Part shown: positions 27,869 through 44,848 of the stretch, in pieces
Position numbering within the stretch: position 1 is the first letter of the stretch
How the letters are laid out: every line of letters begins with the position of its first letter
Origin: an uncultured Methanoregulaceae archaeon
GTDB taxonomy: Archaea > Halobacteriota > Methanomicrobia > Methanomicrobiales > Methanospirillaceae
Direction of reading: 5' to 3'
DNA length: 64,000 nt
NCBI GenBank assembly: GCA_963737635.1
Contig: CAVTTL010000001.1
Location: 2,112,001-2,176,000 of the forward strand
Notes under the pieces: generated by a model
Seen by the model: only the letters and a program-made list of their open reading frames with translations
Told to the model about the DNA's origin: nothing
Database searches by the model: none
Program-made: the position numbers and the translations under genes

Positions 27869-27947
27869 GGCTCTGTAACGTCTGCGGATGGCACCATATT
27901 TTCTTCGACGAAGGCTTAATGCAACCACCCGAAGACTTGACGGAGCC
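27869..27947 (+). repeat. Palindromic element A1 (79 bp, IS6-like ends)
   Basis: GGCTCTGTAACGTCTGCGG...TTCTTCGACGAAGGCTTAATGCAAC...GAAGACTTGACGGAGCC. Confidence 0.9.
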
Positions 27948-28097
27948 TTTGCCGATTCCATCTGTCGAGCCTGTGACAAGTATAACCGGCTCTGTCGTGA
28001 AGGTGCATATTCGGGTGCAACAAAAAGAAATTATCGATGCGGCAAAGTGTCGCTGACGATACCATCACTCGCATCCCCTAATGATTATGATCTATGA

Positions 28098-28186
28098 GGT
28101 CTGGTGCGTTATCGGGATTTGATAAATTCATCTCGTCGTGATTTTTCATAAATGAGTATTGAAAGTCCCGCAAACGCACCAGAACC
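28098..28186. repeat. Palindromic element B1
   Basis: GGTCTGGTGCGTTATCGGGATTT...AAAGTCCCGCAAACGCACCAGAACC; ends 2 bp from the MBL gene stop. Confidence 0.8.
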
Positions 28187-28188
28187 AG

Positions 28189-29079
28189 TTAGCAGAACTG
28201 CCACGCAAAGCCCTCTCCCGAGCGGGTCACACGCCCTGCCGAGGTCTCTGCGAAATGGGAGCTGAAGTACAGGGCATGCCGGTCCGCGAGGTAGTCCAGC
28301 GCCCACTTCCGTGAGGCACGGGCCTTTTCTGCATCTTCACAGTATACCGAGTTCCATTCAGGGCGGAAAATCTGAATGGGATGGTGCATGACATCCCCGC
28401 CAAAAAGAGCCTCATTTCCGCCAACAGTAAGGCCGACTGCCATCTGGCCGACGCTGTGCCCCGGTACGGGATACAGGGAAATTCCCTCAAGGAACTCTGC
28501 CCCGTCCGGTTCAACGATCTCGGCCTGACCTGCCTGGATCACCGGAAGAACACTGTCTTCGTAGATGATGAATTTGACACGGTTCTTCTTCGGGTAATTT
28601 TCCGGGTTGGAATAATGTCTCTGTTCGGCCTTTGAGAAAACGTATGTTGCATTAGGAAAGGTCGGCTCCCACACACCATCAACGAATTGGGTGTTCCACC
28701 CCACATGGTCCACGTGAAGGTGTGTTAAGATAACATAATCCACCATCTCCGGCGTCACACCAGCGGCTTTGAGCCGCTCCAAGTAAGGAGTTTTCAACCG
28801 GTTGAGCCGGGGCTGCCAGGTACGTTCCTTATCGTTTCCTGTCGCCGTGTCAATAAGAATCGTATGCTGCTTTGTCCGTAGCACCCAGGTATGGATACTC
28901 TGAATAACATGCGTACGGGTCACATCCATATTCCCGGGAACCAGCCATTGTTCATGTTCCTGAATAAATGACGGGTTCCACTGGGGATACAGGTATCCGG
29001 GAGTGTTTGAATCGAGAATAAGTTCGGGTACGCGGGTGACCGTCGCGTCACCCGCACGATATACGTGGTTTTGGTCCAT
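28189..29079 (-). CDS. MBL-fold metallo-hydrolase
   Basis: LIDTATG, THLHVDHVG, PGHSVG, GDVMH and H motifs; start at MDQNHVY. Confidence 0.92.
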   Translation of the reverse strand: MDQNHVYRAGDATVTRVPELILDSNTPGYLYPQWNPSFIQEHEQWLVPGNMDVTRTHVIQSIHTWVLRTKQHTILIDTATGNDKERTWQPRLNRLKTPYLERLKAAGVTPEMVDYVILTHLHVDHVGWNTQFVDGVWEPTFPNATYVFSKAEQRHYSNPENYPKKNRVKFIIYEDSVLPVIQAGQAEIVEPDGAEFLEGISLYPVPGHSVGQMAVGLTVGGNEALFGGDVMHHPIQIFRPEWNSVYCEDAEKARASRKWALDYLADRHALYFSSHFAETSAGRVTRSGEGFAWQFC

Positions 29080-29215
29080 AGTTCTTCCACCTTGCTGCCC
29101 GGGCCTCTTTCTTCCGAGCAGATTTACGTTTCTGTACCGGATTGTAGGCTCTATAGTATCAAAAGATGAGCAGTTTGCACAATAGTATATACTATTATTA
29201 ATGATACTATTGAAC

Positions 29216-29312
29216 ATGCAGAGATCTCCTCCTCTCGGGAAATGCCCGATCCAGATCTCGCTCTCCGTCATTGGCGGAAAGTGGAAGCCCATCATCCTCT
29301 GGTTCCTCAAGG
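29216..29312 (+). pseudogene. Truncated HxlR-family regulator
   Basis: CPIQISLSVIGGKWKPIILWFL is the HxlR N-terminus, after which similarity is lost. Confidence 0.75.
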
Positions 29313-29416
29313 AAGTGTGCGGACACATTCCGGGATGGCGCAGGAAAAAAGCAGGATTAAAACCTTCAAATAATATCCCATAACGATTTTTGCCCGGGCA
29401 CCGAGATTCGTCGGTC

Positions 29417-29496
29417 GGTTCTGTTGCGTCTGCAGTTGGTAATGGATTTTTCATCTCATATAAAGTTACATATCAACCGCAAACGCAACGAAAACC
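29417..29496. repeat. Palindromic element B2
   Basis: GGTTCTGTTGCGTCTGCAGTTGGTA...TATCAACCGCAAACGCAACGAAAACC. Confidence 0.8.
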
Positions 29497-29531
29497 CCAT
29501 TACTTTGGTAGATGATTATTGAGTCGAAAAA

Positions 29532-30179
29532 TCAGAGTTCATCAATGGCCATTGCAGCTGCATTGATGATTTCCGTGATTTTGCGGATTTGTTCCGGTGT
29601 AACACTCTCGCGCGATACACGTGCTATCACGGCGCCGTGCAGTTTGTGGAAGGCTCCCATCATTTCCGGCGATCGGCCGCGTTGGAAACTTTTTCCCGCA
29701 TCTTCCAGCCGGTCAAAGAGCTCCTTCATGCGTTTTTCGTTGGCTTGGAGAAATTGCATTCCTTCCGGGGTCACCGAATAAACCTTCTTGGAGTTCTCTG
29801 ACGATGAGATGGTAAGCCCCTCTTCTTCAAGCATCGTCAGGGTTGGATAGACAACACCGGCACTTGGCGTATATCCACCTGCGAGACGTTGCTCCATGGT
29901 CTTGATGAGCTGGTATCCATAACTTGGCTGCTCCGCGAGCAGTTTAAGGACGACCAGTTTGAAGTCGCCGGCCTCAAATAAGCGTTCCCGCCCACCGCCA
30001 AAGCCACCCAGACCGCCAAAACCGCGGTACATCCGGGGGTCACCATGCATATGGTGCATCCGGTGACCAAAATCCTGATCGGGTCTCTCATGAGGCCCCA
30101 AGCCGAAACGGAGACCTCCGGAAAAACCGGGTTCGCCAGGGATGCATCCGTCATCCATGCCAAAAATGTGTTCAAACAT
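29532..30179 (-). CDS. PadR-family regulator, YqjI-like with His/Gly-rich N-terminus
   Basis: GDFKLVVLKLL..PSYGYQLIK...YTPSAGVVYPTL.MLEE motif. Confidence 0.9.
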   Translation of the reverse strand: MFEHIFGMDDGCIPGEPGFSGGLRFGLGPHERPDQDFGHRMHHMHGDPRMYRGFGGLGGFGGGRERLFEAGDFKLVVLKLLAEQPSYGYQLIKTMEQRLAGGYTPSAGVVYPTLTMLEEEGLTISSSENSKKVYSVTPEGMQFLQANEKRMKELFDRLEDAGKSFQRGRSPEMMGAFHKLHGAVIARVSRESVTPEQIRKITEIINAAAMAIDEL

Positions 30180-30204
30180 TGTTTTCTCTCCTTAACGAGG
30201 ATAC

Positions 30205-30251
30205 AAGATGTATCTTAAGATATATCTTAAGCACCTCAAGATATATCTTGA
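30205..30251. promoter_or_regulatory. AAGATATATCTT operator palindromes upstream of the PadR gene
   Basis: Perfect palindromes CTTAAGATATATCTTAAG (30214-30231) and TCAAGATATATCTTGA (30236-30251), plus AAGATGTATCTT (30205-30216). Confidence 0.75.
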
Positions 30252-30315
30252 CTTAGGTATTATTTATACTTTGTTAGAGAGAGGCAAGTTATCGGCAGTT
30301 ATTGATGTGGGCGTA

Positions 30316-30340
30316 TCACCACCCTTTAACTTATCAGAAC
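30316..30340. repeat. Half copy of element family C
   Basis: TCACCACCCTTTAACTTATCAGAAC is identical to 34504-34528. Confidence 0.75.
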
Positions 30341-30500
30341 AGGGCATCACCTATCCAGCATTAACCGCAGAAGTTCCACAATCACGTTCTGACGATAAAA
30401 TTCCCTGGGGATGGGGGAAATGTGGCACAAAGGGAAAGAGACCTTTTGAGGCATCTATGCAGGGACCGGTTCACCCTGCTCCAGTTGCCTCCGGGACCGG

Positions 30501-31361
30501 TCACTCCTTCAAGAGGTCATCAAGGCCAATTGAGATCAGGTCAGCATGTATTGTCTTGGCAATGAAGGGCAGAGCGGCCCCGGGGGAAATGCCGAGTTCA
30601 TCGAGAACCCGCTCAGCGAAAACCTGTGGATCTGTATATTCCGGGCGTTCGGACGCGGTTTTCTTCACGGCAGCATGAATGCGCCCTATGTATGCAAGGG
30701 AGTCTTTCAAACGCCGGTATGCCGCTTTCCCTTCAGCGGGAGTATCGTGTGCGGGAAAGTAGTGCCTGATCCCCGGAATTCCTTTGAGCCGCTGGATCGA
30801 ACGGACAAGTGCCACCGGGTCCGTGTAGAATGGCCCTGAAAACCCGGGGGTCTGTACCGTGTCCCCGGTAAAGAGTGCCATCTCTTCTCTAAGGAGCAAA
30901 GAGATGGATCCCGGCGAGTGACCTGGCGTATGAAACACTTCAAGAGTGAGTCCTTTCCCGAGGCTCATGGTGTCACCACCTTTCAGGTGCCTGCTGATCG
31001 TAACAGGCCCGCCCACCATGGGTGGGACCCCGGGTGCCGGGCTTTTCAGCATCATCGGGTCAACGTTCTCGATTGCAGGGGCGTCCAGTGACTGAGCAGC
31101 GACCACGCAGCCTGTCAGATCATGGATTGCTTTTGCAGCACCGATATGGTCAGGATGCGAGTGGGTCAGGACGATGAGGTTGATATCGGAGGGATCCCGG
31201 CCGGTCGAGCGGATATCTTCATAGATCAGCTTCTCAGACCCGTTGACCCCGGTATCGATCAGGGTGATGCGGTCCCCGTAGACGAGGTATACGTTCACAA
31301 ACCGGTCTGGCGTCGTCCCTAGGAGGATTCTGATAGCGTGGATGTGCGGTGTAATCTCCAT
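30501..31361 (-). CDS. MBL-fold metallo-hydrolase
   Basis: LIDTG, THSHPDHIG, HTPGHSPGS, FTGD and PAH motifs. Confidence 0.92.
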   Translation of the reverse strand: MEITPHIHAIRILLGTTPDRFVNVYLVYGDRITLIDTGVNGSEKLIYEDIRSTGRDPSDINLIVLTHSHPDHIGAAKAIHDLTGCVVAAQSLDAPAIENVDPMMLKSPAPGVPPMVGGPVTISRHLKGGDTMSLGKGLTLEVFHTPGHSPGSISLLLREEMALFTGDTVQTPGFSGPFYTDPVALVRSIQRLKGIPGIRHYFPAHDTPAEGKAAYRRLKDSLAYIGRIHAAVKKTASERPEYTDPQVFAERVLDELGISPGAALPFIAKTIHADLISIGLDDLLKE

Positions 31362-31479
31362 TGAAATACCTACATCGATCTCAACCACTCATCCTTAAAA
31401 ACAAATCTCATACGAGAGGACACGGGGGTAGTCAATCCCCGGCCCGGTAGCGGAGTTCTTCTCTTTTCATGTCCTGCAG

Positions 31480-31558
31480 GGCTCTGTAAAATCTGCGGGT
31501 GGTGACCTATTTTCCTCGACGATGGCTTAATGCAACTACCCGTAGACTTGACAGAGTC
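31480..31558 (+). repeat. Palindromic element A2
   Basis: GGCTCTGTAAAATCTGCGGGTGGT...ACTACCCGTAGACTTGACAGAGTC; ~24-bp arms. Confidence 0.9.
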
Positions 31559-31617
31559 GATCAAAACACATTTTATTATATCGGTAAGCCCGGAGATTTT
31601 CCATTAAAATTTTTTAA

Positions 31618-31634
31618 AGTTACTAATAGTAAGT
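31618..31634. promoter_or_regulatory. Putative TetR operator AGTTACT-N3-AGTAAGT
   Basis: Matches the perfect inverted repeat at 32501-32517; lies 40 bp before tetR. Confidence 0.6.
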
Positions 31635-31673
31635 ATAATTAATTCAAATAGCAATCCTATATTACCGATACCT

Positions 31674-32297
31674 ATGCCCAAACTGTTTCCGGGGTACAAA
31701 GACGAAATCAGGAAAAAAATCGTAAGCGAGGCCTTTCCGATATTCCTTGAGAAAGGTTTTGAAAAGACCATGATGGACGATATAGCTGCTCGGCTTGGGG
31801 TGACAAAGCCGGCAATCTACCGTTACTACAAAAACAAGGAGGAACTTTTCATCGCTTCAATGGGCGAGACGATGTTGGGGGCATACAGGACGATTTTTGC
31901 CACTTCCTTTGCATCGGACAACCCGATTACCAGCGCCGGAAATTTTTTCGATGCCCTCCTTGTGATCAGCAGTAAATATTCAATTATCAGGAAGGATTTG
32001 GAATATATTATTTCCCGGAATCCTTCCCTCCATGAAGAAATCACAGGAATGTATAGGGAAAGCCTTGAGGTTATGCGGGATGTTTTCCAAGAGCAGAAAC
32101 GAAAGGGAAAGATCCATACTACCATGGAAGAAACCGATCTTGCTTTTCTCTGCGGCGTCGTTGCGCAGGGTCTGATCAATAGCGTGGACATGGGACTGGA
32201 CCCTGCTGAAGCAAAACGATTGTGGCTTCTCTGTTTTACAAAACTTTCGGATGTCAGCTTAGGAAAGGAAAAGAAAAAGAAGATTTCCGGGGCATAA
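31674..32297 (+). CDS. TetR/AcrR family regulator
   Basis: F.EKGFEKTMMDDIA..LGVTKPAIYRYYKNKEELF HTH. Confidence 0.93.
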   Translation: MPKLFPGYKDEIRKKIVSEAFPIFLEKGFEKTMMDDIAARLGVTKPAIYRYYKNKEELFIASMGETMLGAYRTIFATSFASDNPITSAGNFFDALLVISSKYSIIRKDLEYIISRNPSLHEEITGMYRESLEVMRDVFQEQKRKGKIHTTMEETDLAFLCGVVAQGLINSVDMGLDPAEAKRLWLLCFTKLSDVSLGKEKKKKISGA

Positions 32298-32500
32298 ATC
32301 AATTTTTTGTGAGAAACCTTTTTTTGTCCTATTACCGCTAAATTTTCTTTCACAGTTCGAGTGAATTTCCGCCTAAATTATCGGGATGACTCCAGAATCT
32401 TATAGTTCAGATCCCGGAGTAAAACAACCAATAATAGTCCTTTTATTGCCATCGTTTACGGTCCGATATTTCTATCAAATTTGTTAATTCAATTTATTTC

Positions 32501-32517
32501 AGTTACTTTGAGTAACT
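32501..32517. promoter_or_regulatory. Putative TetR operator AGTTACT-N3-AGTAACT
   Basis: Perfect inverted repeat upstream of the ABC exporter operon. Confidence 0.65.
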
Positions 32518-32649
32518 TTAAATATTTAAAGTAACAACAATTTTAGAAGCTCATGAAAGTTTTTGCCATGCATCAGATCAGCTATTCACAAAAATCAAAA
32601 TCGGCACTTTTCGTCGCAGGAATAATCTTTGCAGGAGGTAAACACAACT

Positions 32650-33624
32650 ATGAAGAATAACGCAATTTTAGCAGTTGAAGCTCACGGCTTGGTAAAGACC
32701 TTTGGTGATAACAGGGCTGTTGATGGAGTGAGTCTGAGTATCCCGACAGGTAGTATCTGCGCTGTACTGGGGCCGAACGGCGCGGGAAAAACTACTACAA
32801 TAAATATGCTTGCCACGTTGTCAAAACCGGATGCGGGGAATGTAAAAATATTCGGTTATGATGTTGTTCGCGAAACGCAAATTGTGCGTCAACTGATTGG
32901 GTTGACGGGACAATTTGCCTCTATCGACGAGGATCTAACTGCTTTGGAGAATCTTATAATTTTCGGTAGATTGTATGGATATTCTCGCAAAGATTCTAAG
33001 CGCAAAGCGAATGAACTCTTGGAAGAGTTTGGGCTTAGTGATGTGGCGAGCCGCGCATTGTCAAAGTTTTCCGGCGGCATGCGGCGCAGACTTGACCTCG
33101 CGGTAAGTCTGATTTCCCAGCCGCCGCTGATCTTCCTTGACGAGCCGACAACAGGGCTTGACCCAAGGACTCGGACGCAGATGTGGCAGACAATACGCAA
33201 TCTTGTAAAAGGCGGCTCAACGGTACTGCTAACGACACAGTATCTTGATGAAGCCGATCAACTTGCCGACAACATTGTTGTAATCGACAAGGGACGAGTC
33301 GTTGCGAACGATACACCCGACGGATTGAAACGCTCCGTGGGAAGCAGTTCGTTGCACTTGACCGTCAAAGACGCAGATAACGCCGCCAACGCGGCGCAGA
33401 TCATCGAGCGCATACTCGATGCGAAGGTTCATCTTGGGAAAGCCTCTGAGTTGATCGCACCGATAGACAACATCGACAAACTGATCGATGTGTTGACGAC
33501 GCTGAAAGATGCCGGAATAGCGTTGTCCGGGGTAAACATCCTGCAACCTACACTTGATGAGGTGTTCTTCGCGCTGACAGGTGAGGGTTCCAAAGATAAA
33601 ATGGAGGAAAATTTAAATGACTAA
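32650..33624 (+). CDS. ABC exporter ATP-binding subunit (DrrA-like)
   Basis: GPNGAGKT, FSGGMRRRL and FLDEPTTGLD motifs. Confidence 0.93.
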   Translation: MKNNAILAVEAHGLVKTFGDNRAVDGVSLSIPTGSICAVLGPNGAGKTTTINMLATLSKPDAGNVKIFGYDVVRETQIVRQLIGLTGQFASIDEDLTALENLIIFGRLYGYSRKDSKRKANELLEEFGLSDVASRALSKFSGGMRRRLDLAVSLISQPPLIFLDEPTTGLDPRTRTQMWQTIRNLVKGGSTVLLTTQYLDEADQLADNIVVIDKGRVVANDTPDGLKRSVGSSSLHLTVKDADNAANAAQIIERILDAKVHLGKASELIAPIDNIDKLIDVLTTLKDAGIALSGVNILQPTLDEVFFALTGEGSKDKMEENLND

Positions 33625-34435
33625 TACAATCATCATACCCGCCGCCGAGCGCAAACTGAAAAATAGAATCGGAGTTGTCACCACAATCAGAAACACATGC
33701 ACGTTCGCGTATCGGGCGCTATTAAAAATGTTCAAAAATCCCGAAATACTTGTGGATTTCGTAGTCTTACCGGTTATGTTCACGCTGCTTTTCACCTTTT
33801 TATTCGGGGGTGCGATTTCGGGCAACATCCCGAACTATCTGCCAATTGTCATCCCCGGCGTTTTGTTGATGTCATCTTTCACCAATTGTACCACCGCGGG
33901 TAGTAAACTGCGCGAGGATGTGAACAAAGGCATAACAAGCCGTTTTAAATCCATGCCGATTGCGCGAATTGCTCCGTTGGCGGGAAGTTTGACTGCCGAC
34001 CTTGTACGATACGTAATAGGGGGAACTACCGTTTTTGTTATGGGATATATTCTCGGTTACAGACCCGAAGCAGGCATTCCCGCGGTCATTTTCAGCATAC
34101 TTTTCATGATGCTCGTTGCCTGGTGTATGAGCTGGGTGTTTGCGTTTATTAGTATGTGCACAAAGACGATTTCAACTGCGTCTGCGATTGGTGTAGTAGT
34201 AATGTTCCCGTTAGTATTCCTGTCGAACGCTTTTGTTCCGGCCGGAACGATGCCGAGCTGGCTGCAATATTTTGTACTGCATATAAACCCGCTATCCACC
34301 GTCGTAACAGTGGTGCGGCAGTTGTTGACTTATGGCACGATAGGCGCGAATTTTTGGTTCGCATTATTCGGCGCTTTGGCGATACTCGTCGTATTCATTC
34401 CGCTGACACTTATTGCGTATAATCGCAAGGCGTGA
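33617..34435 (+). CDS. ABC-2 permease (DrrB-like)
   Basis: Six TM segments, RFKSMPIAR, FLSNAFVP..TMPSWLQ and NPLS. Confidence 0.92.
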   Translation: MTNTIIIPAAERKLKNRIGVVTTIRNTCTFAYRALLKMFKNPEILVDFVVLPVMFTLLFTFLFGGAISGNIPNYLPIVIPGVLLMSSFTNCTTAGSKLREDVNKGITSRFKSMPIARIAPLAGSLTADLVRYVIGGTTVFVMGYILGYRPEAGIPAVIFSILFMMLVAWCMSWVFAFISMCTKTISTASAIGVVVMFPLVFLSNAFVPAGTMPSWLQYFVLHINPLSTVVTVVRQLLTYGTIGANFWFALFGALAILVVFIPLTLIAYNRKA

Positions 34436-34450
34436 TCCTTGCGTAGTTTA

Positions 34451-34529
34451 GGTGCTGATAAATTAACAGGTGATCGTTATTTTTCTCTCTCGTAAATATT
34501 TTCTCACCACCCTTTAACTTATCAGAACC
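34451..34529. repeat. Palindromic element C1 (79 bp)
   Basis: GGTGCTGATAAATTAA...TTAACTTATCAGAACC; 15 bp after the permease stop. Confidence 0.8.
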
Positions 34530-34558
34530 GAATTGGGTATAAGGTTGTTTTTTACGCA

Positions 34559-34637
34559 GGTTCTGTCAAGTCTTCGGGTGTTAGCATTAAGCCTACGTCG
34601 AGGAAAATAGGTCACCACCCGCAGATTTTACAGAGCC
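34559..34637 (-). repeat. Palindromic element A3 (inverted)
   Basis: Reverse complement is nearly identical to A2. Confidence 0.9.
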
Positions 34638-34760
34638 CAAAAAAATACTTTTTTATGAACACGTAGTGGTTTCGTTCAAACACTATATACTTTTGAAAGG
34701 AGATATAGTGCTCATTGAAATATTCTAGAACTCAGATCTACCTTCCGGACGAATCGCATT

Positions 34761-35264: not shown

Positions 35265-35274
35265 AGGAAAGTGT

Positions 35275-35919: not shown

Positions 35920-35935
35920 GTATAGAGGAATTCCG

Positions 35936-37585: not shown

Positions 37586-38281
37586 TCATTTTCCCGGGAA
37601 TCCATTTTTTCGAGTATTTCTTTTTGCAAACTCCCGGACCTTTTCCGATGCATCGGGTCTAAGAGGTATTCCATGTCCCGACAGCATGATATCGAAATCA
37701 AGTGCGGCGATTTTATTGATTGATTGTTGTACCTCACGTGTGTCTAATGGCAATGGTCCTATTTCGATTTTACTACCGTTAAACCTCAATAGATCCCCAA
37801 CAAACAGAATTTTTGATGCCGGATCAAAAAGACAAATACTTCCCGGTGTATGTCCTGGTGTATGAATGGATGTGAGACCAGCGATGGTGTCACCATCGTT
37901 GAGCTTTATATCCGGTTCAACAGGTCTTGATCCGAAAAACAAGGGAATGAGGACTTTAACGATCATTCCCTGAGCACCTCTCGGTACAGGCGGGGTTTTC
38001 CTGCCGGAAACGTAGTCCGCATCCGCTTCATGAATGGCCACCTTCGCACCGCTCAGTTTTTTGAGATCGCTGGCGCCGCCCACGTGATCAATGTGAAAAT
38101 GTGTAAGGACGATTGTTTTGATTTCTGAAGGTTTACGTTTAAGAATATCCTGAATATAGGTTACTATTTTTGCGCTGTTTTTGGGCATTCCTGTATCGAT
38201 AAGTGTCAGTTCGTCCCGAACAATAATAAAACAATTACCATTTACACCATCGACTTGGTGAATTCCAGGTACTATCTCCAT
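37586..38281 (-). CDS. MBL-fold metallo-hydrolase
   Basis: LIDTG, THFHIDHVG, HTPGHTPGS, GD and SGHG motifs. Confidence 0.92.
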   Translation of the reverse strand: MEIVPGIHQVDGVNGNCFIIVRDELTLIDTGMPKNSAKIVTYIQDILKRKPSEIKTIVLTHFHIDHVGGASDLKKLSGAKVAIHEADADYVSGRKTPPVPRGAQGMIVKVLIPLFFGSRPVEPDIKLNDGDTIAGLTSIHTPGHTPGSICLFDPASKILFVGDLLRFNGSKIEIGPLPLDTREVQQSINKIAALDFDIMLSGHGIPLRPDASEKVREFAKRNTRKNGFPGK

Positions 38282-38393
38282 AATCCTTCAACTCCATTTT
38301 TTGTAGTTCTTGACTACAAAGATCCAAGGTATGTCAATTTATAGTGGATACTAACAATTTTAGCCTGTGCTAACAAAATATATAGTAACTGTG

Positions 38394-38840
38394 ATGACGA
38401 AGAACGATGATTTTTGGCGATGGATCGAGGCTGCTCTCAATGTGATCGGAGGGAAGTGGAAACTGCTGATCGTTCTTGCATTAATGGACGGGACCCAGCG
38501 ATATAGCGAGATCTCGCATAAGCTTCCGGCAATCAGCGAGAGGATGCTCGTTAAACAGCTCCGTGAGATGGAGCACGACGGTATTATCACAAGGACAGTC
38601 TATGCAGTAGTCCCCGCGAAGGTTGAATATTCGCTTACGCAGTCAGGTGAAAAACTGATTCCTGTTTTGATAATTCTCGGTGTATGGCGTATAATCTACC
38701 GTGGATCCGATGTTGTCTGTGAGGGGTTGTCCGAGCCAGTGGATGTAGACCCCGCCAAACTTCGTCAGCTGCTCGAAGATGTCAACAGTATCCTTCAAGA
38801 TGCCGACAAAAAACTGAAACGCGAGGGTAATGCTGATTAA
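38394..38840 (+). CDS. HxlR-family winged-helix regulator
   Basis: VIGGKWK, ISERMLVKQLREME.DG and PAKVEYSLT motifs. Confidence 0.92.
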   Translation: MTKNDDFWRWIEAALNVIGGKWKLLIVLALMDGTQRYSEISHKLPAISERMLVKQLREMEHDGIITRTVYAVVPAKVEYSLTQSGEKLIPVLIILGVWRIIYRGSDVVCEGLSEPVDVDPAKLRQLLEDVNSILQDADKKLKREGNAD

Positions 38841-38844
38841 GCCG

Positions 38845-38924
38845 GGCTCTGTAAAATCCGCGGGTGGCGACATATTCTCCTCGACGAAGGTTTAATGCAA
38901 CCACCCCGAAGACTTGACAGAGCC
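38845..38924 (+). repeat. Palindromic element A6
   Basis: GGCTCTGTAAAATCCGCGGGTGG...GAAGACTTGACAGAGCC; 4 bp after the hxlR stop. Confidence 0.9.
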
Positions 38925-39057
38925 CTTATTTCTTTACCCAAACAGGGGTGATTTCCCCAATACTATTTCGGGAACAGCTTTCCCAGCGAATCCGAAAAAA
39001 GTGCCGGAATCTGGTAAAATAATGAATTATAAATCCTAGGTGGCCTCATACGAGGGT

Positions 39058-39486
39058 ATGGAAAAGATAGCAGTGCTGGTAGATTCCCGGGGAGGACGTA
39101 CCCGGAGTGCCGCTGTCGCGATCGCGGAAGAGTTAGGGGTGAGTGTCGGGGACATTAAAAACCCGATGCCTGATGCTGAGATCCTTTTCCTCGGAAGCGG
39201 AATGTACGGCACCGGTCCGGGGCATTATATGAACCGCCTTCTCCAAGAGGGCACATTTACCGGAAGGAAGGTTGCCTTGTTTGCAACGGCAACGTATCCC
39301 AAGGATGGAGAGTGGATGCTTATCAGTATGGCGGAAACTCTGGAAAAGAAGGGCGCAACGATCCTCGGGAACACCGGAGGTGTCCGGGGCAAATTGATTA
39401 TCAACAAATACCTGCGCCTGCACCCGGAGGATCTGGAAGGTGCGAGGAACTGGGCCCGGGAGATCGTGGGGAATTACCCGCGCTGA
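39058..39486 (+). CDS. Flavodoxin-like protein
   Basis: SRGGRTR P-loop, FLGSGMY, KVALFAT and HPEDLE.AR.WA. Confidence 0.8.
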   Translation: MEKIAVLVDSRGGRTRSAAVAIAEELGVSVGDIKNPMPDAEILFLGSGMYGTGPGHYMNRLLQEGTFTGRKVALFATATYPKDGEWMLISMAETLEKKGATILGNTGGVRGKLIINKYLRLHPEDLEGARNWAREIVGNYPR

Positions 39487-39566
39487 TTGTGCCTTTGGAA
39501 AAGTGGCCGGACCCTCGCTTCGATCCTTCTTACCGCCCATCGGGCTGACAATGGTTGCCTTTAAGA

Positions 39567-39640
39567 GGCTCCGTCTAAGGGCGGTTGCATTAAGCCTTTG
39601 TCGAAGAAAATATGTCGCCACCCGCAGACTCGACAGAGTC
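39567..39640 (-). repeat. Palindromic element A7 (inverted, shortened)
   Basis: GGTTGCATTAAGCC..GTCGAAGAAAATATGTCGCCACCCGCAGACTCGACAGAGTC is the reverse complement of family A. Confidence 0.85.
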
Positions 39641-39658
39641 AGAGTATACCCTTTTTAT

Positions 39659-40312
39659 TTACACCGGGTCTTTTTTCGCAAACCTTGCACCCATATCGAA
39701 AGCTTTCTGGCAATCAACGGGGAACTTTTCTTCCCTGCGCTGTTTGGCTTTGGCTGCCGCATCATGCGAACAGACGTATTTCGTGTAATCGTCAAACAGG
39801 TCTGTGCCCGTAACGACCAGCGATTCGGCAGAGCCGAAGATCCGACCCAGGATCATCCCGGTGAGTGCGAAGTGACTGTCGAGCTGCATCGTCTTTATAC
39901 CATCCTCGTCTGCCCCCAAGGTTAAGATGAGCCCGGTCTTGATCTTTTTCGGGAATATCGAGGACCCGAGAATTTCGAGGGAGAAGTACGGGTACGCGGC
40001 CCGCTCGAAGAATGACCTCATCTCTCCGGTGACCGTGCCAAAGTAAATAGGCGATCCTAATATCAAGGCATCAACACCCGGTATCTTTTCCAGCACCGGG
40101 GTGAGGCCATCCTGAACTGCACATTTCCCATAACTTTTCCCGCCCTTCAGTTTGCAGGCTAAGCAGCTGGTGCAACCTTTGAAGTCAAGGTCATATAAAT
40201 GGACGATTTCGGTCGCGGCACCCTGTGATGCAGCGCCTTCGAGTACCTTGTTCAACAGCGTTGCGGTATTCCACGTCTTTCTTGGGCTCCCGTTGATTGC
40301 TAAAACGTTCAT
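39659..40312 (-). CDS. Iron-sulfur flavoprotein / NADPH-dependent FMN reductase family
   Basis: NGSPRK..NT, CTSCLAC...C and GSPIYFG motifs. Confidence 0.9.
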   Translation of the reverse strand: MNVLAINGSPRKTWNTATLLNKVLEGAASQGAATEIVHLYDLDFKGCTSCLACKLKGGKSYGKCAVQDGLTPVLEKIPGVDALILGSPIYFGTVTGEMRSFFERAAYPYFSLEILGSSIFPKKIKTGLILTLGADEDGIKTMQLDSHFALTGMILGRIFGSAESLVVTGTDLFDDYTKYVCSHDAAAKAKQRREEKFPVDCQKAFDMGARFAKKDPV

Positions 40313-41149
40313 TATACCCACGTCACGGTGAGGGATTTGCTGCGCTCCGGGATGCGCACCGGTTTATACTTTGGATACCCGGCCAACAACGCGCCGGCAA
40401 GCTTGCGGTTGTCCGGGATGTGGAGGGCTTCCCTTACGGGACGGTAATTCTGGGCAACACTGACCAACCGGCCAGCCCAGCACGTCCCGAGCCCGAAAGC
40501 CGGGGCGGTAATATCGACATGGGTAAGTGCGATGATCGCGTCGGTCTGTACCAGACCTGTGGTATCCGCCGTGCCCGTGGGAACATGGGCGCAGATAAGA
40601 ACCGGAGCGCCCCGACAGAGAATATCGATCCCGTTATTCCAGTATTCAGTGAGTAAAGGGATGAGTGGAGTGAGAGGTTGATCACTTTTCACCGATTCCT
40701 GTAAATAATCCAACGTAAGTGCGGCGATGGTATGGACTTTTTCAGCACCATTCACGACTACCCATTCGACAGGCTGGTAATTTCCCCCGGTCGCAGCATA
40801 GCGGGCGTTTTCAAGGATCTGCATGAGGGTTTCATTGGCCACCGGTTCGGGACGGTATATCCGGATCGAACGGCGACTTTTGAGGTAGGTACCTGAACTT
40901 CTCCGGACCGACTGATCCGGGTGCTGCTGCACGTTGAAGGTGCACACCTTCCTTGTGTTCGCGGGTCAGCGCCCCTGTTGGACAGAACGCTTCGCAATGC
41001 CCGCAGGACAGACACCATGCCTCCTTCGGGGACGGGATTTCCGGAAGCGCAGTAGAGTTATCAGCCAGTGTTATAATCTGCGTCGTGCAAATCTCCGAAC
41101 AGATCCCGCACCGGGTGCAGAGATCACGATCAACGGTTATTCCGATCAT
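40312..41149 (-). CDS. Ferredoxin-nitroreductase fusion; frameshift near 40894
   Basis: N-terminal CTRCGICSEIC and CLSCGHCEAFCP; other frame has LKSRRSIR, YAATGGNYQP and GLGTCWAG. Confidence 0.85.
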
Positions 41150-41299
41150 AAGGATAACCATCCTGAAAATGTGAGATCGGCATTGCCGTCAGTTTCTTCA
41201 ATTTTTCTCACACCAGATTTGAATCGTTTGTGTTGCATACCAAATAGTACGCATAGGCGGGATAAATAGTTTGTTAGACTAACAAACCAATCTGTTGAT

Positions 41300-41740
41300 T
41301 CACTCTTTCTTCTCTGATGAGCAATCAATCATAATCCGAAATGCTTTGATAAGGGTTTTTTGCTGGTTTTCTGTTGTGGTTTTCTCAATCTGCTCTATGA
41401 ATGCCTGAAAAACCCGCTGTTTGTGTTTAAAAACCTGACAACCTTTTTCGCTCAGGGTCAGGAGAAATTTGCGCTGATCAACATCGGATTGGGTCCGGAT
41501 AACGAATCCGTCCTTCATAAGTTTTGTTATCGCGGCGTTAGCTGAAGGTTTTGAGACACCGAGTTTTTGGGCAAGTTCGGTTAGGGTGATACTGTCGTTG
41601 CGTTGGATGCCCCGTAAATAATAGAACTGGTTGAGGGTAAGATCACAAAAACCGATCTTTTCCATTTCGATTCTATCTGCTTCAACGGTAACATGTTTGT
41701 ACCGTTCGATAAACTGAGCAAATAGATCCCTTAAATCCAT
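41300..41740 (-). CDS. MarR-family regulator
   Basis: LTLNQ..YL, TLTELAQKLGVSKPS and DQRKFLLTLSEKG. Confidence 0.9.
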   Translation of the reverse strand: MDLRDLFAQFIERYKHVTVEADRIEMEKIGFCDLTLNQFYYLRGIQRNDSITLTELAQKLGVSKPSANAAITKLMKDGFVIRTQSDVDQRKFLLTLSEKGCQVFKHKQRVFQAFIEQIEKTTTENQQKTLIKAFRIMIDCSSEKKE

Positions 41741-41780
41741 AGCAGTACATAGAACCAGTTCAAACATTAAGGTAATGGGG

Positions 41781-41867
41781 GGTTCTGTCGCGTTGACAGG
41801 ACTTAAAGTAACACCGTGGTGAGGACCATTAATTGGTATTTAAACATCCCGTAAATGCAACAGCACC
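41781..41867. repeat. Palindromic element B3
   Basis: GGTTCTGTCGCGTTGACAGGA...TCCCGTAAATGCAACAGCACC. Confidence 0.78.
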
Positions 41868-41939: not shown

Positions 41940-42545
41940 TCAGGGTATCCATTTGAGGATGACGTCGGCATTGCGGGCAGGCGCCGGAAGGGGGCTTTTC
42001 GCCGGGTAGCCGAATATTAACGGTGCGACGAGCTTGTGGTCCTTGGGGATACTTGCCTCCTTCAGGAATGCCTCATCGGAGCCAAGGCCGGCTGCAAGTC
42101 CAATCCAGCAGCTGCCGATCCCCAGCGAATGCGCTGCAAGCATCATGTTCTCTGCTGCGAGGGCGCAGTCGTGTTCATTAAGCGCATCCGGGGAGGCAAA
42201 GACGAGGATGAAAACAGGCGCTTCGTACAGGATCCGGACTTCCGGTTTTGTCAGGTTCTTTGCATAGCCGGCCAGCTCCGGGATGGTCGAGTCCTTGAAC
42301 ATGCTGACGAAGATCTTCTTGGCCCTCTCGTCATACTCATCGATGAGTTTCCTGTTCTTGATGACAACGAATCGCCACGGCTGTTTATTGACGGCGGTCG
42401 GGGCATAGGTGCCTGCCCGGATAATCTCCCGGATAATCTCATCGGGGACGTCTTTGTCGGAATACTTCCGTACGGATCTTCTCCCATAGATAGTATCCAT
42501 GACAGGGTTCGAGAGCGGTTTGTCGGGTTTTTTAGATGTAGTCAT
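41940..42545 (-). CDS. Nitroreductase family protein
   Basis: RRSVRKY, APTAVNKQPWRF and ENMMLAAHSLGIGSCWIG. Confidence 0.93.
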   Translation of the reverse strand: MTTSKKPDKPLSNPVMDTIYGRRSVRKYSDKDVPDEIIREIIRAGTYAPTAVNKQPWRFVVIKNRKLIDEYDERAKKIFVSMFKDSTIPELAGYAKNLTKPEVRILYEAPVFILVFASPDALNEHDCALAAENMMLAAHSLGIGSCWIGLAAGLGSDEAFLKEASIPKDHKLVAPLIFGYPAKSPLPAPARNADVILKWIP

Positions 42546-42710
42546 TGTTTCACCAATACTGCATCATTCCTTGACGGATATAACCATTGTCAACGATACA
42601 ACAAAAATCAGTGTGCCTTTTTCATTATAATCCATTCATTCTCACGGATATACTTCGATACCCAGTTTCAGCGCAATATTCATTATCGCTCTGAATCAGT
42701 ATAATCCACA

Positions 42711-42802
42711 GGTTCTGTTGCGTCGTCGGGACCTTTACATAATCAATATTGATGGATTAAGACGATACAATTTTCGGCAAGTCCCGATAAGGCAACAGCA
42801 CT
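42711..42802. repeat. Palindromic element B4
   Basis: GGTTCTGTTGCGTCGTCGGGAC...GTCCCGATAAGGCAACAGCACT. Confidence 0.8.
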
Positions 42803-42830
42803 TGTGAACACATGAGAACCGCTATATCCA

Positions 42831-43679
42831 TCAGAGAGTTTGTTTCAGGAGAAATTGTCTTATTTTTTCTCCTGTATCCGTTCCGGGTAACGGAGTGAAA
42901 ACCGTCATTTTCAGATGGGTATTATCGGAAACCAGATAACTGGCAATCTCAAAATCCAATGATCCTAACACCGGGTGAATAACCGTCTTAAACCGCTCCT
43001 CCTCCGTTCTGACGTTATGCATTGGCCACAACAAAGCAAACTCCGTGCTTTCGCTTTTCAGTTCATTTACAAAGTGTTCAATCCAGGGATCTTCAGCAAA
43101 TTTACCGCAGGCTGAGCGGAACCTGGCGACCATTCCCTGTGCGGCAGACTCCCAGTCGGGAAATGTCTTTCTGAATTCTTTATTGGTAAACATAATTCGG
43201 ATCACATTGCGCTCGTGAACACTGAATTTACCAAAATCCGCCAGAATTTCTGCAGCCCTGTTCCATGCAATCACATTCCAGCGGGCATCCAAAATAGTTG
43301 CAGGAGAACATTCCAAGCTGTCCAGAACATGCTGCAAGATCGGATTAACCGTTTCGTTGCTGGTGGGAAAAACGGCCGGTGGCGTTTGTTGGGCAAGGTT
43401 GTAAAGATGTACGGTCTCCTGCTTATCAAGCATCAGAGTCCTTGCCAGATTTTCAAGCACCTGTGTGGATACCTGGACAGGACGTCCCTGTTCGATCCAT
43501 GTATACCACGTTAATCCAATTCCCGAAAGAGAGGCAACCTCCTCTCGCCTCAGGCCGGGTGTCCGGCGGCGTGAGCCTTCGGGCAGGCCGATCTGCGAAG
43601 GCAGAATATTTGCCCTGCGTGTTTTTAAAAAATCCCCGAGTTCCTTGTACCTTTGCTTTGGGTTTTCCGGAGTGTCCAT
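42831..43679 (-). CDS. XRE/MmyB-type transcriptional regulator
   Basis: LGDFLKTRR...RRRTPGLRREEVA..WYTWIEQGR plus a PAS-like MmyB ligand domain. Confidence 0.92.
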   Translation of the reverse strand: MDTPENPKQRYKELGDFLKTRRANILPSQIGLPEGSRRRTPGLRREEVASLSGIGLTWYTWIEQGRPVQVSTQVLENLARTLMLDKQETVHLYNLAQQTPPAVFPTSNETVNPILQHVLDSLECSPATILDARWNVIAWNRAAEILADFGKFSVHERNVIRIMFTNKEFRKTFPDWESAAQGMVARFRSACGKFAEDPWIEHFVNELKSESTEFALLWPMHNVRTEEERFKTVIHPVLGSLDFEIASYLVSDNTHLKMTVFTPLPGTDTGEKIRQFLLKQTL

Positions 43680-43702
43680 TTCCTTTCCCTATCAGGGTAG
43701 TA

Positions 43703-43718
43703 ATTATACTAGTATAAT
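43703..43718. promoter_or_regulatory. Perfect palindrome between divergent regulator and SDR genes
   Basis: ATTATACTAGTATAAT. Confidence 0.55.
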
Positions 43719-43835
43719 CATTTTCCTACCAATAGTATATATCAGAAGGGAATATCAAAACATGCCTGTAACCCACGGACCGGTTTCAGGAGTAAACGTG
43801 ATTGAAATTTAAAAAAAGAAACGAGGCAGGAAAAA

Positions 43836-44630
43836 ATGACAGCAGAACTCTCAGAAAATACAAAGAAACCCGGTACCAGGATCGCTCTCGTTACCGGAGG
43901 AAGCCGCGGTCTTGGCCGTAGCACCGTGTTAAACCTCGCCAAGAGGGGCGTTGACTCGATCTTTACCTATCATACCAACCGTGCGGAGGCCGAGAAGGTC
44001 GCCGGACTTGTGCGTGAGACGGGGCGCAAGGCTGTCGTCCTGCAGCTTGACACGGGTAATGTATCTTCGTTCGATGCGTTTGTGCAGAACGTACGAGGGG
44101 CACTCACTGATTTGGGAGCCGAACGCTTCGATTATCTTGTCAATATGGCCGGTATCTCGCACCACAATTCATTTGCTCAGACGACTGAACAGGAGCTGGA
44201 TAACCTCTACAACGTCCATTTCAAGGGGGTTTTCTTCCTGACACAGAAGCTCCTACCACTTATGAACGATGGCGGCAGGATTGTCAATATTGCGTCAGGG
44301 CTCACCCGCGTCGTGATGCCGGGAAGCTGCGCCTATGCATCCATGAAGGGCGCCGTTGAAATCATGACCCGCTATCTGGCTTTGGAACTGGGTCCCCGGA
44401 GGATTGCGGTTAATGTTGTTGCTCCCGGGGCTATGGCGACCGATTTTAGTGGCGGCATGGTTCGCGATAACCCGGAAATGAATAAACGGGTAGCAGACAT
44501 GACGGCGCTCGGCCGAGCCGGCCTTCCGGAGGACATCGGCCCGATGATTGCCTCGCTGCTCTCCGAGGAGAACCGCTGGATCAATGCCCAGCGTATCGAG
44601 GTCTCGGGCGGCATGTCGATCTCGATCTAA
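43836..44630 (+). CDS. Short-chain dehydrogenase/reductase
   Basis: TGGSRGLG, YASMK (YxxxK) and VAPG motifs. Confidence 0.94.
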   Translation: MTAELSENTKKPGTRIALVTGGSRGLGRSTVLNLAKRGVDSIFTYHTNRAEAEKVAGLVRETGRKAVVLQLDTGNVSSFDAFVQNVRGALTDLGAERFDYLVNMAGISHHNSFAQTTEQELDNLYNVHFKGVFFLTQKLLPLMNDGGRIVNIASGLTRVVMPGSCAYASMKGAVEIMTRYLALELGPRRIAVNVVAPGAMATDFSGGMVRDNPEMNKRVADMTALGRAGLPEDIGPMIASLLSEENRWINAQRIEVSGGMSISI

Positions 44631-44768
44631 AAGGGTACTGGTTTTTGTAACCTCCCTTTCTGACAAAATGCCTGGTTACACTGACACTGGTTGAATTTTA
44701 CGGTTCTGTAGCGTTGACCGCACGAGACCCAACCGATGTCGACCTAATCGGAGTTAATTATTAGTGGC

Positions 44769-44848
44769 GGCTCTGTAACGTCTGCGGGGGGGCACCATTT
44801 TTTCTTCGGCGAAGGCTTAACGCAACCACCCAAAGACTTGACAGAGCC
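44769..44848 (+). repeat. Palindromic element A8 (preceded by a B-type half at 44702)
   Basis: Closest match to A1 (both begin GGCTCTGTAACGTCTGCGG and contain GGCACCAT); GGTTCTGTAGCGTTGAC at 44702 resembles the B3 left arm. Confidence 0.9.

Follow-up and report, generated by a model that had tools for sequence, protein, structure and literature searches.

MITE-bounded composite units are known in bacteria, where two miniature elements bracket cargo that is mobilised in trans (integron mobilisation units, Tn3-derived TIMEs) and the pair moves as one unit with a target-site duplication (TSD). In the bacterial IS6 family, IS26, IS257 and IS1216 occur in arrays, pseudo-compound transposons and translocatable units, for which the available text of Varani et al. 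(2021, PMC7986276) describes, as we find here, GG...cTGT-type terminal repeats, autonomous simple insertions with an 8-bp TSD, single copies often without one, and direct and inverted copies between short efflux, detoxification and regulator modules. According to the same text, IS6 chemistry yields arrays with direct and inverted copies, flanking repeats are lost through intramolecular transposition, and the resolution of cointegrates needs homologous recombination (Varani et al. 2021, PMC7986276). The IS6-family MITEs in ISfinder (MITEBth2, 227 bp; MITEHarch3, 336 bp) carry both IS ends and no ORF, as do those below; their accounts, in the parts available, mention no clustering, gene arrays or systematic lack of TSDs (Varani et al. 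2021, PMC7986276; Harmer & Hall 2019). Integron arrays and CALINs, including archaeal ones, share several traits with the present locus: the palindromes are short, imperfect, of conserved length and placed after genes, one array can hold several sequence families, the cargo is accessory and a recombinase is sometimes not nearby, as described in the available part of Ghaly et al. (2022, PMC9668308). Here we analyse a 64,000-nucleotide stretch of a methanogen chromosome (the window), in which about 12 small stress-response gene modules are punctuated over 17 kb by ~80-bp elements.

Elements, cargo and clustering of the array

The array contains 13 complete imperfect palindromes of 74–92 bp between gene modules at window positions 27869-44848 (eight of Family A, four of Family B and one of Family C), all with the termini GGYKCTG...CAGMRCC. 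They are given below with two solo ends.

27869-27947, plus: MITE A1, Family A, 79 bp; nhmmer E 2.7e-24; no TSD
28098-28186: MITE B1, Family B, 89 bp; the stop codon of an MBL-fold gene (28189-29454, minus) is 3 bp away
29417-29496: MITE B2, Family B, 80 bp; PadR-module homology to G125 begins at 29497
30316-30341, minus: solo C-type end (half site); 2 mismatches in 22 to the C arm
31480-31558, plus: MITE A2, Family A; flanked by divergent MBL-fold (30501-31388, minus) and TetR (31674-32297, plus) genes
34451-34529: MITE C1, Family C, 79 bp; 15 bp past the ABC-2 permease stop codon
34559-34637, minus: MITE A3, Family A, inverted; 29 bp from MITE C1
35275-35352, plus: MITE A4, Family A; the stop codon of ORF 34761-35264 lies 10 bp earlier
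35840-35919, plus: MITE A5, Family A; MFS-module homology (G028, G020, G105) begins 8-10 bp past its end
38845-38924, plus: MITE A6, Family A; the HxlR stop codon lies 4 bp earlier
39567-39640, minus: MITE A7, Family A, inverted, 74 bp; ~6-nt deletion in one arm
41781-41867: MITE B3, Family B; left terminus is the exact breakpoint against G028 and G020
42711-42802: MITE B4, Family B, 92 bp; left arm agrees with the inverted repeat of the T1 IS at 21/22 bases
44702-44723, plus: solo B-like end, weak half site; 5 mismatches to the B arm
44769-44848, plus: MITE A8, Family A; right-flank ABC-2 operon homology (G072, G030, G113, G105, G124) begins 3-42 bp past its end

An earlier note on this DNA, made from its letters, had proposed these 13 palindromes, and all are present where it placed them. 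It had also held that they occur nowhere else in the window, which stands for complete copies, while a solo B-type end lies at ~7172-7193. Its half sites at 30316-30341 and 44702 were retained, those at 27988 and 35780 carry the GGYTCTG start alone, and that at 37514 was unsupported. As the note had stated, no transposase or integrase is encoded in the window (64 ORFs scanned against Pfam). Elements and genes both occur in either orientation across the array. Its copies differ by 12-19% from one another, the same as from copies in other species; there has been no recent burst.

The cargo consists of regulator-plus-effector modules with efflux pumps, MBL-fold hydrolases, nitro- and flavin reductases and an SDR.

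28189-35693: MBL-fold protein of 421 aa; PadR; MBL-fold protein of 295 aa; TetR, ABC ATPase and ABC-2 permease; ORF of 167 aa; ORF of 91 aa
35920-38844: MFS (35936-37336, minus), MBL-fold (37586-38281, minus) and HxlR (38367-38840, plus), between direct repeats A5 and A6
39641-41780, minus: FMN reductase, nitroreductase and MarR module (Pfam scan)
41940-42545, minus: nitroreductase, within further modules at 41940-44630
Also within 41940-44630: MmyB-like regulator (42831-43679, minus) and SDR (43836-44630, plus)

Blocks in G028, G020 and G105 share 88-95% identity with the MFS/MBL-fold/HxlR module. For the nitroreductase-MarR part (40299-41784), identity to G028, G020 and G113 is 87-93%, and its neighbours in those genomes are different. 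Some modules reach 88-95% identity between species whose core flanks share 72-85%. Homologues of the flavodoxin, ORF91, MBL295, MBL421 and TetR genes in relatives are only 73-81% identical and lie at loci without nearby elements in 9 of 10 cases checked; several cargo genes are ordinary genes of the genus with core-like divergence.

The note had suggested running a profile of the copies against the genome, and they are not evenly scattered. With nhmmer, the profile of eight Family A copies gave strong matches in the 2.46-Mb genome to those array copies only, plus two weak ones, to a degenerate 80-bp element (contig position C1:1669551) and to the left end of a full-length IS (C1:2385539). Arm-like matches, defined by up to 5 mismatches to any of the three arm motifs, fall inside the 17 kb (0.7% of the genome) in 24 of 69 cases. 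Another ~14 IS6-type mini-palindromes are scattered through the rest of the genome, and its other variable regions hold no more than about one MITE per 10 kb. The clustering is far beyond chance.

Resident transposases and target-site duplications

Four intact DDE_Tnp_IS240 transposase genes (T1-T4) were found outside the window in this Methanoregula-type genome. Their products of 382-411 aa combine an N-terminal zinc-binding (zinc-finger) region with a DDE_Tnp_IS240 core, score above the cut-off of Pfam PF13610 and match the NCBIfam IS6 model over its full length at 110-115 bits, just under its cut-off. They form two groups (T3 versus T1/T2/T4) that are only 33-37% identical to each other. 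Two points of the earlier note were borne out, its comparison with IS6-type ends and its proposed search for an autonomous transposase whose ends match: three of the four genes adjoin ends that agree with Family A at 20/23 bases, Family B at 21/22 and Family C at 18/22. The Family A match is to the ends adjacent to T3 (C1:2385539 and 2388757), which share the left/right A-versus-C asymmetry of the arms at position 9; the Family C match is to the T4 left end. The inverted repeats of the T1 element (C1:425105-429100) are ~55 bp long and perfect, as is its 8-bp TSD. Judged by these ends, the palindromes are MITEs that carry the terminal inverted repeats of three resident IS6-like ISs without coding capacity, each built of two ~23-bp terminal inverted repeats around an unrelated loop of 30-45 bp. 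Their probable cognate transposases, distant on the same chromosome, are T3 for Family A and the T1/T2/T4 group for Families B and C. The matching ends therefore make mobilisation in trans plausible.

The MITEs differ from their autonomous relatives in their flanks. At 35 of 78 loci, full-length relatives across Archaea have GGTTCTGT(C/A)AAGTCT-type inverted repeats enclosed by a perfect 8-bp TSD. By comparison, TSDs with at least 7 of 8 matching bases are absent from all 49 MITE copies examined, of which 13 lie in the array, 13 at other sites in the genome and 23 in congeners; their flanks agree at chance level. In the array, where the note had reported no TSDs, the count is 0/13, with 1-4 of 8 bases identical. 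The outcome that it had set against its own reading, an even scatter with 8-bp TSDs, did not materialise, the copies being clustered and TSDs absent. Nor do any two array copies share an 8-bp duplication in their flanks, direct or inverted, at a threshold of 7 of 8 matching bases, and MITE pairs in other genomes showed no composite TSD.

Synteny breakpoints and formation of the island

In comparison with congeners, scored by the best candidates per genome, cross-species homology ends within 0-10 bp of MITE termini, and reordering and homology breaks fall exactly at elements, as the note had anticipated. In G028 and G020, the nitroreductase-MarR pair and the MFS-MBL-HxlR genes are contiguous, separated by 13 bp; here this block is split and reordered at A5, A6, A7 and B3. 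The break on the MarR side coincides exactly with B3, and that on the MFS side lies 8 bp from A5. Homology also stops at the edges of B2, A6 and A8 in G125, G025, G104, G072 and G030. Testable junctions without an element are conserved in relatives in 3 of 3 cases (MFS|MBL, MBL|HxlR and nitroreductase|MarR), whereas across those with one (B2, A5, A6, B3 and A8) the window neighbour was found in 0 of 5. Part of this coincidence is expected, because interspecies homology tends to end at gene ends anyway. The A6-equivalent junction carries a C-like MITE in G028 and none in G025 and G104, and a B-type MITE remnant occupies the B3 position in G113. The surroundings of the 5.08-kb block in G028 and G020 are unrelated, and MITEs bound it in G028. 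Upstream of grpE, a Family A right end at an orthologous site belongs to a full IS in G000 and to a MITE in G009, and the DNA beyond its other side differs.

With element identity, matching transposases, clustering, TSD absence and coincidence with synteny breakpoints established, we consider it somewhat probable (about 0.55) that transposases acting in trans on MITE ends, in an IS26-like manner, made the island arrangement. Such transposases would follow the IS6/IS26 route of replicative 'copy-in' fusion or intramolecular inversion/deletion, possibly with end-targeted conservative joining. The cointegrate of a full-length IS is resolved by homologous recombination to a single copy with an 8-bp duplication, while an 80-bp repeat would offer homology too short for efficient resolution. 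A MITE event would thus give a lasting fusion, inversion or deletion, the MITE staying at the joint without flanking duplication because the product could not be resolved across 80-bp repeats; repeated, locally favoured events would have built and reshuffled the 17-kb island. Several observations qualify this proposal, among them the 12-19% divergence of the array copies, the mostly single copies in other genomes and the cargo homologues at 73-81% identity without nearby elements. The missing shared-flank pairs count against a cointegrate/inversion model, which predicts them, at least for recent events; the co-clustering of three MITE families and two transposase groups is not explained by strict copy-to-copy targeting; and joints in public contigs, which fall inside repeats and have short sides (≤32 letters), could be artefacts of the graph or belong to other copies. 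The interpretation of the earlier note is partly supported; the active gene capture that it proposed is conjectural.

It is possible, though rather doubtful, that ordinary IS6-like MITEs accumulated passively, inserted singly into intergenic gaps of a dispensable hypervariable island whose genes were shuffled by other processes. The variable region around the island is larger than the island itself (window ~14-52 kb) and has little nucleotide homology in congeners, and cargo genes are shuffled between species even where elements are absent. In 17 other genomes, searched for the best candidates per genome, the same family occurs mostly as single intergenic copies beside assorted unrelated genes. 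The array copies are old, and three unrelated MITE families together are what a permissive site would collect. Passive accumulation leaves unexplained the 0/49 TSDs beside autonomous relatives that have them, the confinement of all eight Family A copies to one 17-kb stretch, the breaks at the very termini of B3 and B2, and the lack of an empty-site allele for any element among the best candidates per congener genome.

Domestication as structural elements, in which hairpins of historical IS origin are kept, REP-like, as terminators, mRNA stabilisers or regulator sites, is improbable, although it could coexist with the trans-acting route. In its favour, a stop codon is found 3-20 bp away from most elements, and loops are conserved between species. 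Of the 13 elements, 10-11 can be folded into hairpins over their whole length, most having z-scores between -0.9 and -4.7 under DNA parameters. Against this, the arms lack real covariation (pairing of 88.5% versus 87.3% in shuffles, with four pairs showing double changes), orientation relative to genes is inconsistent, and A1 and A2 lie at 5' ends or in divergent promoter regions. Hairpin energies are modest, those of A5, A7 and B3 being no better than shuffles, and Rfam (E up to 1, window 20000-50000) returned nothing but one chance microRNA match.

The MAG-like genome (4 contigs, 90% complete) and its repeats invite chimeric joins, by which a metagenome assembler could have joined modules of different strains at shared 80-bp repeats. 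The array is not such an artefact: contigs from runs of separate studies span all elements but A2 (12 of 13; A2 is unbridged in the pieces listed), differing at 0-1 positions, and depth in run X2 is even (~8-11) over the array except in two bins, where conserved genes from other organisms add to it. An integron-like array of attC-type structure-specific sites served by a tyrosine recombinase is largely refuted, and with it the note's attC analogy: conserved length, palindromic form, variable loops, position after genes and, in the available part of Ghaly et al. (2022, PMC9668308), the frequency of integrase-less attC clusters in archaeal MAGs speak for it, but the termini belong to resident DDE-transposase elements, arm pairing is at shuffled level, orientations are mixed, modules have their own regulators, and in the ~90% complete genome no integron integrase was found, the sole intact tyrosine recombinase being XerA (290 bits; 96 bits with the integron-integrase model, cut-off 265).

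Comparison with known systems

Compared with IS26-type arrays, the joints here are 80-bp non-coding MITEs instead of full ISs, and the transposases, encoded in trans hundreds of kb away, are long (~380-410 aa) with an N-terminal zinc-binding region; the array is chromosomal and resides in a methanogenic archaeon, with no cointegrate or circle observed. The only two catalogued ISfinder IS6 MITEs, compared by description in the available accounts, are 3-4 times longer than the array MITEs. Unlike integrons, the array implies a DDE instead of a tyrosine recombinase, has no attC-type structure constraint and no intI or attI, and combines mixed orientation with multi-gene modules carrying their own regulators. 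Whereas bacterial MITE-bounded units are pairs, this array joins 13 elements without TSDs and derives from a different parent IS family.

Miniature elements and resident transposases

The array in window 27869–44848 (17 kb) carries the thirteen complete palindromes that the earlier note had placed there, eight of Family A (A1–A8), four of Family B (B1–B4) and one of Family C (element C1). They are 74–92 bp long and non-coding, with arms matching IS ends at 18–21 of 22–23 bases, as expected of MITEs; of those ends only the outermost ~23 bp are retained, and the second subterminal repeat of full ends is absent. The eight aligned Family A copies give a consensus of 79 columns starting with GGCTCTGTAAAGTCTGCGGG and ending with CCCGAAGACTTGACAGAGCC, and six of them lie in plus and two in minus (inverted) orientation. 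Direct repeats A4, A5 and A6 bracket ORF91 and an MFS–MBL–HxlR module, a feature of IS26-type arrays. Array copies differ from one another by 12–19% and are hence old. C1 and A3, a very close pair, lie 29 bp apart.

Across the 2.46-Mb genome, the Family A profile (nhmmer) returned eight strong matches (E below 1e-19), all inside the array, and two weak ones; the weak match at C1:1669551 is an 80-bp element in degenerate form, and that at C1:2385539 is where a full-length element has its left end (C1 with a colon denotes the chromosomal contig). When the three arm types were searched for with mismatches allowed, 24 of 69 genome-wide matches fell within the 17 kb of the array. Other mini-palindromes with IS6-type arms number ~14 elsewhere in the genome, at ~1 per 10 kb or fewer even in denser regions. 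MITEs usually have multiple dispersed copies; Family A is multi-copy in this genome but occupies one locus, and it is dispersed in 17 of 107 congeners, which carry 1–6 copies, mostly single, beside assorted genes. Looser clusters in the same genome comprise five MITEs in 56 kb (C1:1613390–1669630) and, in a stretch that includes the T3 element described below, ~14 ends in 70 kb (C1:2349812–2419519); both consist of IS6-type ends and mini-palindromes. Within the window, a ~70-bp element at 7129–7199 ends in a solo B-type IS6 end and is 85–90% identical to copies in two congeners (G113 and G025).

Four intact DDE_Tnp_IS240 ORFs (T1–T4, 382–411 aa) were identified in the genome, none within the window. 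All four score 48–60 bits with PF13610 (cut-off 27), indicating an IS240/IS6-type DDE transposase. With NF033587, the NCBIfam IS6 model, they score 109–115 bits across the whole model (1–202), below the cut-off of 125; IS6 is nonetheless their top-scoring transposase family. The N-terminal region is of the IS1/IS1595 zinc-binding type, and one of the four matches SWIM too. T1, T2 and T4 are 67–76% identical to one another, while T3 shares 33–37% with them. The best-delimited element is that of T1:

C1:425105–429100 (506–4501 of the fetched locus L007), T1 element, 3996 bp, its ~55-bp inverted repeats and 8-bp target-site duplication (TSD) both perfect

Beside the gene for the 406-aa transposase it has one GmrSD_N-like and one HEPN (RiboL-PSP) gene, and is a transposon whose cargo is likely defensive. 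The T3 element (3219 bp) carries an extra 307-aa ORF, and its flanks match at only 5 of 8 positions.

The ends of these elements parallel the MITE families. T1 ends agree with Family B at 21 of 22 bases, T3 ends with Family A arms at 20 of 23, including the same left/right difference at position 9, and the left end beside T4 with Family C at 18 of 22. The T1 and T3 elements have a terminal GGTTCTGT... repeat (GG start, cTGT motif) at each end, and dozens of relatives carry it too; Varani et al. 2021 (PMC7986276) describe a GG...cTGT terminal repeat as an IS6 feature. The IS6-like character proposed in the earlier note is therefore borne out and extended by candidate trans-acting partners for Families A, B and C. 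Just 10 bp separate the left end of the T3 element from a solo right end of Family A type (C1:2385440–2385560; ~940–1060 of locus L008), and these abutting ends, at C1:2385528/2385539, resemble the C1/A3 arrangement.

Modules and their order in congeners

About twelve modules make up the array:

MBL-fold protein, 421 aa
PadR
MBL-fold protein, 295 aa
TetR, ABC ATPase and ABC-2 permease
two small ORFs without a family match (two modules)
MFS, MBL-fold protein and HxlR
flavodoxin-like protein
FMN reductase, nitroreductase and MarR
second nitroreductase
MmyB-like regulator and SDR

No transposase or recombinase was found among the 64 window ORFs scanned, so the bracketing copies of the array encode no transposase. 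GC content of the modules is 0.41–0.55, compared with 0.516 for the genome. Left of the array, KilA-N, AAA_14/DUF4143 and serine beta-lactamase-family genes of low GC (0.445) occupy window 14079–18067, where nucleotide homology in five congeners is nearly nil; the variable region therefore reaches well beyond the array on that side. Farther left, window 7797–14002 holds a HerA–NurA–Rad50 (SMC_N)–Mre11 (Metallophos) DNA-end-resection operon that is 71–80% conserved in congeners.

The array DNA was searched against 108 genomes of the genus, and ten loci were then inspected in detail. Congeners G028 and G020 share a 5.08-kb block consisting of nitroreductase–MarR, a 13-bp spacer and MFS–MBL–HxlR, which is 92.5% identical between them in otherwise unrelated surroundings and has a C-like MITE at either edge in G028. 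The window's versions of these genes are 88–95% identical but split and reordered, in the sequence A5, MFS–MBL–HxlR, A6, flavodoxin, A7, FMN reductase–nitroreductase–MarR, B3. The MarR-side break falls at the first base of B3 and the MFS-side break 8 bp past the end of A5; at the MarR junction, G113 has a B-type MITE remnant in the same position. Homology to G125 begins with the base that follows B2; for G025 and G104 it stops at the HxlR stop codon, 4 bp before A6, and for G072 and G030 it begins about 10 bp after A8, with none of these five genomes carrying an element at the site. Overall, relatives kept all three testable element-free junctions, whereas the window's neighbour across the junction was found at none of the five testable element-bearing ones. 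Upstream of grpE, a Family A right end stands at the orthologous site both here, where it terminates the full T3 element, and in G009, where it terminates an 80-bp MITE, and the DNA across from that end is unrelated between the two. A region of G020 with two Family A copies was considered as a syntenic counterpart and proved not to be syntenic with the window.

Judged by nucleotide identity, the 88–95% identical modules look more recently shared, because the core flanks of the window are only 72–85% identical to the same genomes. Counting against this picture, homologues of the flavodoxin, ORF91, MBL295, MBL421 and TetR genes are only 73–81% identical, and at nine of ten loci checked for these genes no element lies nearby. 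Other repeats were seen in congeners. In G105 (contig C21, locus L037, ~5880–6080 and ~8860–9060), a different repeat, with G runs, then CCCGGC, then further G runs, lies on both sides of the MFS–MBL–HxlR block, and a similar G-rich stretch adjoins the G020 block (L036, ~5976–6070). In G122 (L139, C5:9500–19000), the homologue of the 295-aa MBL-fold protein is present as two inverted copies ~2.4 kb apart, and IS6-type ends were not detected there.

Missing duplications and readings of the array

None of the 13 array copies is flanked by a TSD (flanks agree at 1–4 of 8). With 13 mini-palindromes elsewhere in the genome and 23 congener copies of Family A included, 0 of 49 MITEs match at 7 or more of 8; the distribution of flank matches is at chance level, and the TSD of the parent family, expected of a MITE, is thus not seen. 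Separated TSD halves were not found either: when the 8-bp flanks of all 13 array elements were compared with one another, in direct and reverse-complement orientation, none agreed at 7 or more of 8. An any-offset 8-mer search in 14-nt flanks of the 49 copies was near null (6 of 8 in 13 copies versus 6.1 expected), and no TSD surrounds the MITE–segment–MITE pairs in G125 and G103. A MITE pair in G121 was uninformative as a composite, being part of a ~7-kb inverted duplication. That locus (L126, G121:C12:2500–9500) is nearly entirely a 7-kb self-inverted duplication of 92.5% identity with one Family A MITE per arm, and may be either a genuine large palindrome or a product of assembly. Simple decay of the flanks fails to explain the absent TSDs, because the non-arm loops stay 80–90% conserved among copies.

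According to Varani et al. 2021 (PMC7986276), IS6 transposition is a replicative fusion, and a simple TSD-flanked insertion requires homologous recombination of both copies; intramolecular events produce inversions or deletions and remove flanking repeats, and IS26 arrays contain both direct and inverted orientations. By this chemistry, a transposase acting in trans on an 80-bp MITE would yield a fusion that is seldom resolved, and every such event would create a permanent joint, with no duplication flanking the element. Such unresolved events would explain why TSDs are lacking, why the elements cluster in mixed orientations and why they coincide with synteny breaks. In the full form of this reading, archaeal 80-bp IS6-like MITEs would serve a DDE transposase provided in trans as portable recombination sites, a functional counterpart of attC/IntI, permanently fusing, inverting or deleting DNA so as to build and reshuffle chromosomal regulator–effector arrays and pass modules between species, with the transposases forming a widespread, uncatalogued, passenger-bearing archaeal IS6-like clade. 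We assign it a probability of roughly 0.3.

The earlier note had cast the elements as recombination joints. Comparative anatomy supports that idea, in that gene order breaks at the elements in congeners, but direct signs of activity did not emerge; the lack of separated duplication halves, the 12–19% divergence of the copies and the ambiguity of contig joints speak against the mechanism. Furthermore, co-clustering of three MITE families, which belong with two distant groups of transposases, calls for a further assumption: modules may have accreted, each carrying its own element, or insertion near existing ends may be generally preferred, as the 29-bp C1/A3 pair and the abutted ends beside T3 hint. 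The main rival, also tentative, is that MITEs accumulated passively in a permissive hypervariable island; our non-exhaustive congener searches yielded no empty-site allele for any of the elements.

Element edges mostly fall 3–20 bp from stop codons, and a domesticated, terminator-like role is possible and compatible with the recombination-joint reading. An Rfam scan of window 20000–50000 (E up to 1) returned a chance microRNA match alone.

The integron reading is largely excluded. In an integron or CALIN, attC sites are kept by structure, but here the arms are conserved in sequence and pairing is near the shuffled level: in 31 Family A copies drawn from 14 genomes, 88.5% of the cells of the 21 arm pairs are paired compared with 87.3% after partner shuffling, and double changes of any kind are seen in only four arm pairs. 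Folding with DNA parameters gives modest energies. The arms are thus better read as two conserved protein-binding ends than as an attC- or REP-like hairpin. No integron integrase was found in the genome (90% complete), where XerA is the only intact tyrosine recombinase, alongside one fragment, and the TIGR02249 (integron integrase) score is 96 bits against a cut-off of 265. Single-orientation, promoterless cassettes do not fit genes on both strands, the mixed orientations of Family A or modules with their own regulators. For the pairing, integrase and orientation results, the attC analogy drawn in the earlier note was rejected.

An assembly artefact is largely excluded, because contigs from other studies' sequencing runs span 12 of the 13 elements at 0–1 differences. 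As traces of circular one-copy-plus-cargo forms or of insertion beside a copy already present, both IS26-type traits, the joints listed for these contigs are ambiguous: those from 27908 to 39607 on opposite strands (run X4) and from 35296 to 27895 (run X5) lie inside MITEs, a 799-bp skip from 40300 to 41100 (X4) has a side of 26 letters, and all three are too weak as structural variants. Where contigs end loosely at MITE edges, the sequence probably belongs to other copies or organisms.

An archaeal transposase clade and the IS26 comparison

Transposases related to T3 were found in MAGs whose titles name Methanoregula (up to 95% identity), Methanoperedens, Bathyarchaeia, Nitrososphaeria, Thermoplasmata and an Asgard lineage. 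Among 78 fetched loci (L045–L122), 35 have a GGTTCTGT(C/A)AAGTCT-type repeat pair 2.3–5.4 kb apart with a perfect 8-bp duplication, 21 have a repeat pair (some spurious) without a perfect duplication, and 22 have no pair within the fetched DNA. The perfect duplications indicate that the autonomous elements behave as classical IS6-family members. Compact IS6 elements, taken as single-ORF units of about 0.7–0.9 kb (up to 1.8 kb), are exceeded by these 2.3–5.4-kb elements, which often have extra ORFs and whose transposases are about 370–410 aa long. Archaeal members are listed at 700–750 bp and as experimentally unstudied in the family surveys of IS6 reviews including Varani et al. 2021 (PMC7986276). 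The corresponding parts of that review and of Harmer & Hall 2019 describe long zinc-finger forms as clostridial and mention one passenger-bearing IS6 member and two IS6 MITEs. Set against the group descriptions in the two reviews, the long zinc-finger clade does not fit their archaeal IS6 groups.

The locus offers a concrete case of a gene array whose every joint is occupied by a miniature element instead of a full IS, and comes with a large unnamed archaeal IS6-like clade of zinc-finger transposases and passenger genes. If short IS6-type repeats trap transposition in an unresolved state, the absence of target duplications on these MITEs would be explained. The locus also bears on inter-species swapping of stress-response and efflux modules among soil and peat methanogens; a literature search on Methanoregula with miniature inverted elements found no relevant report. 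In clinical bacteria, IS26-type arrays are the main route of resistance-gene assembly, and no comparable array in Archaea was found in the literature on IS6, MITEs and archaea. The locus described here is an IS26-like array with MITE joints, on an archaeal chromosome and with an uncatalogued clade of long IS6-like transposases.
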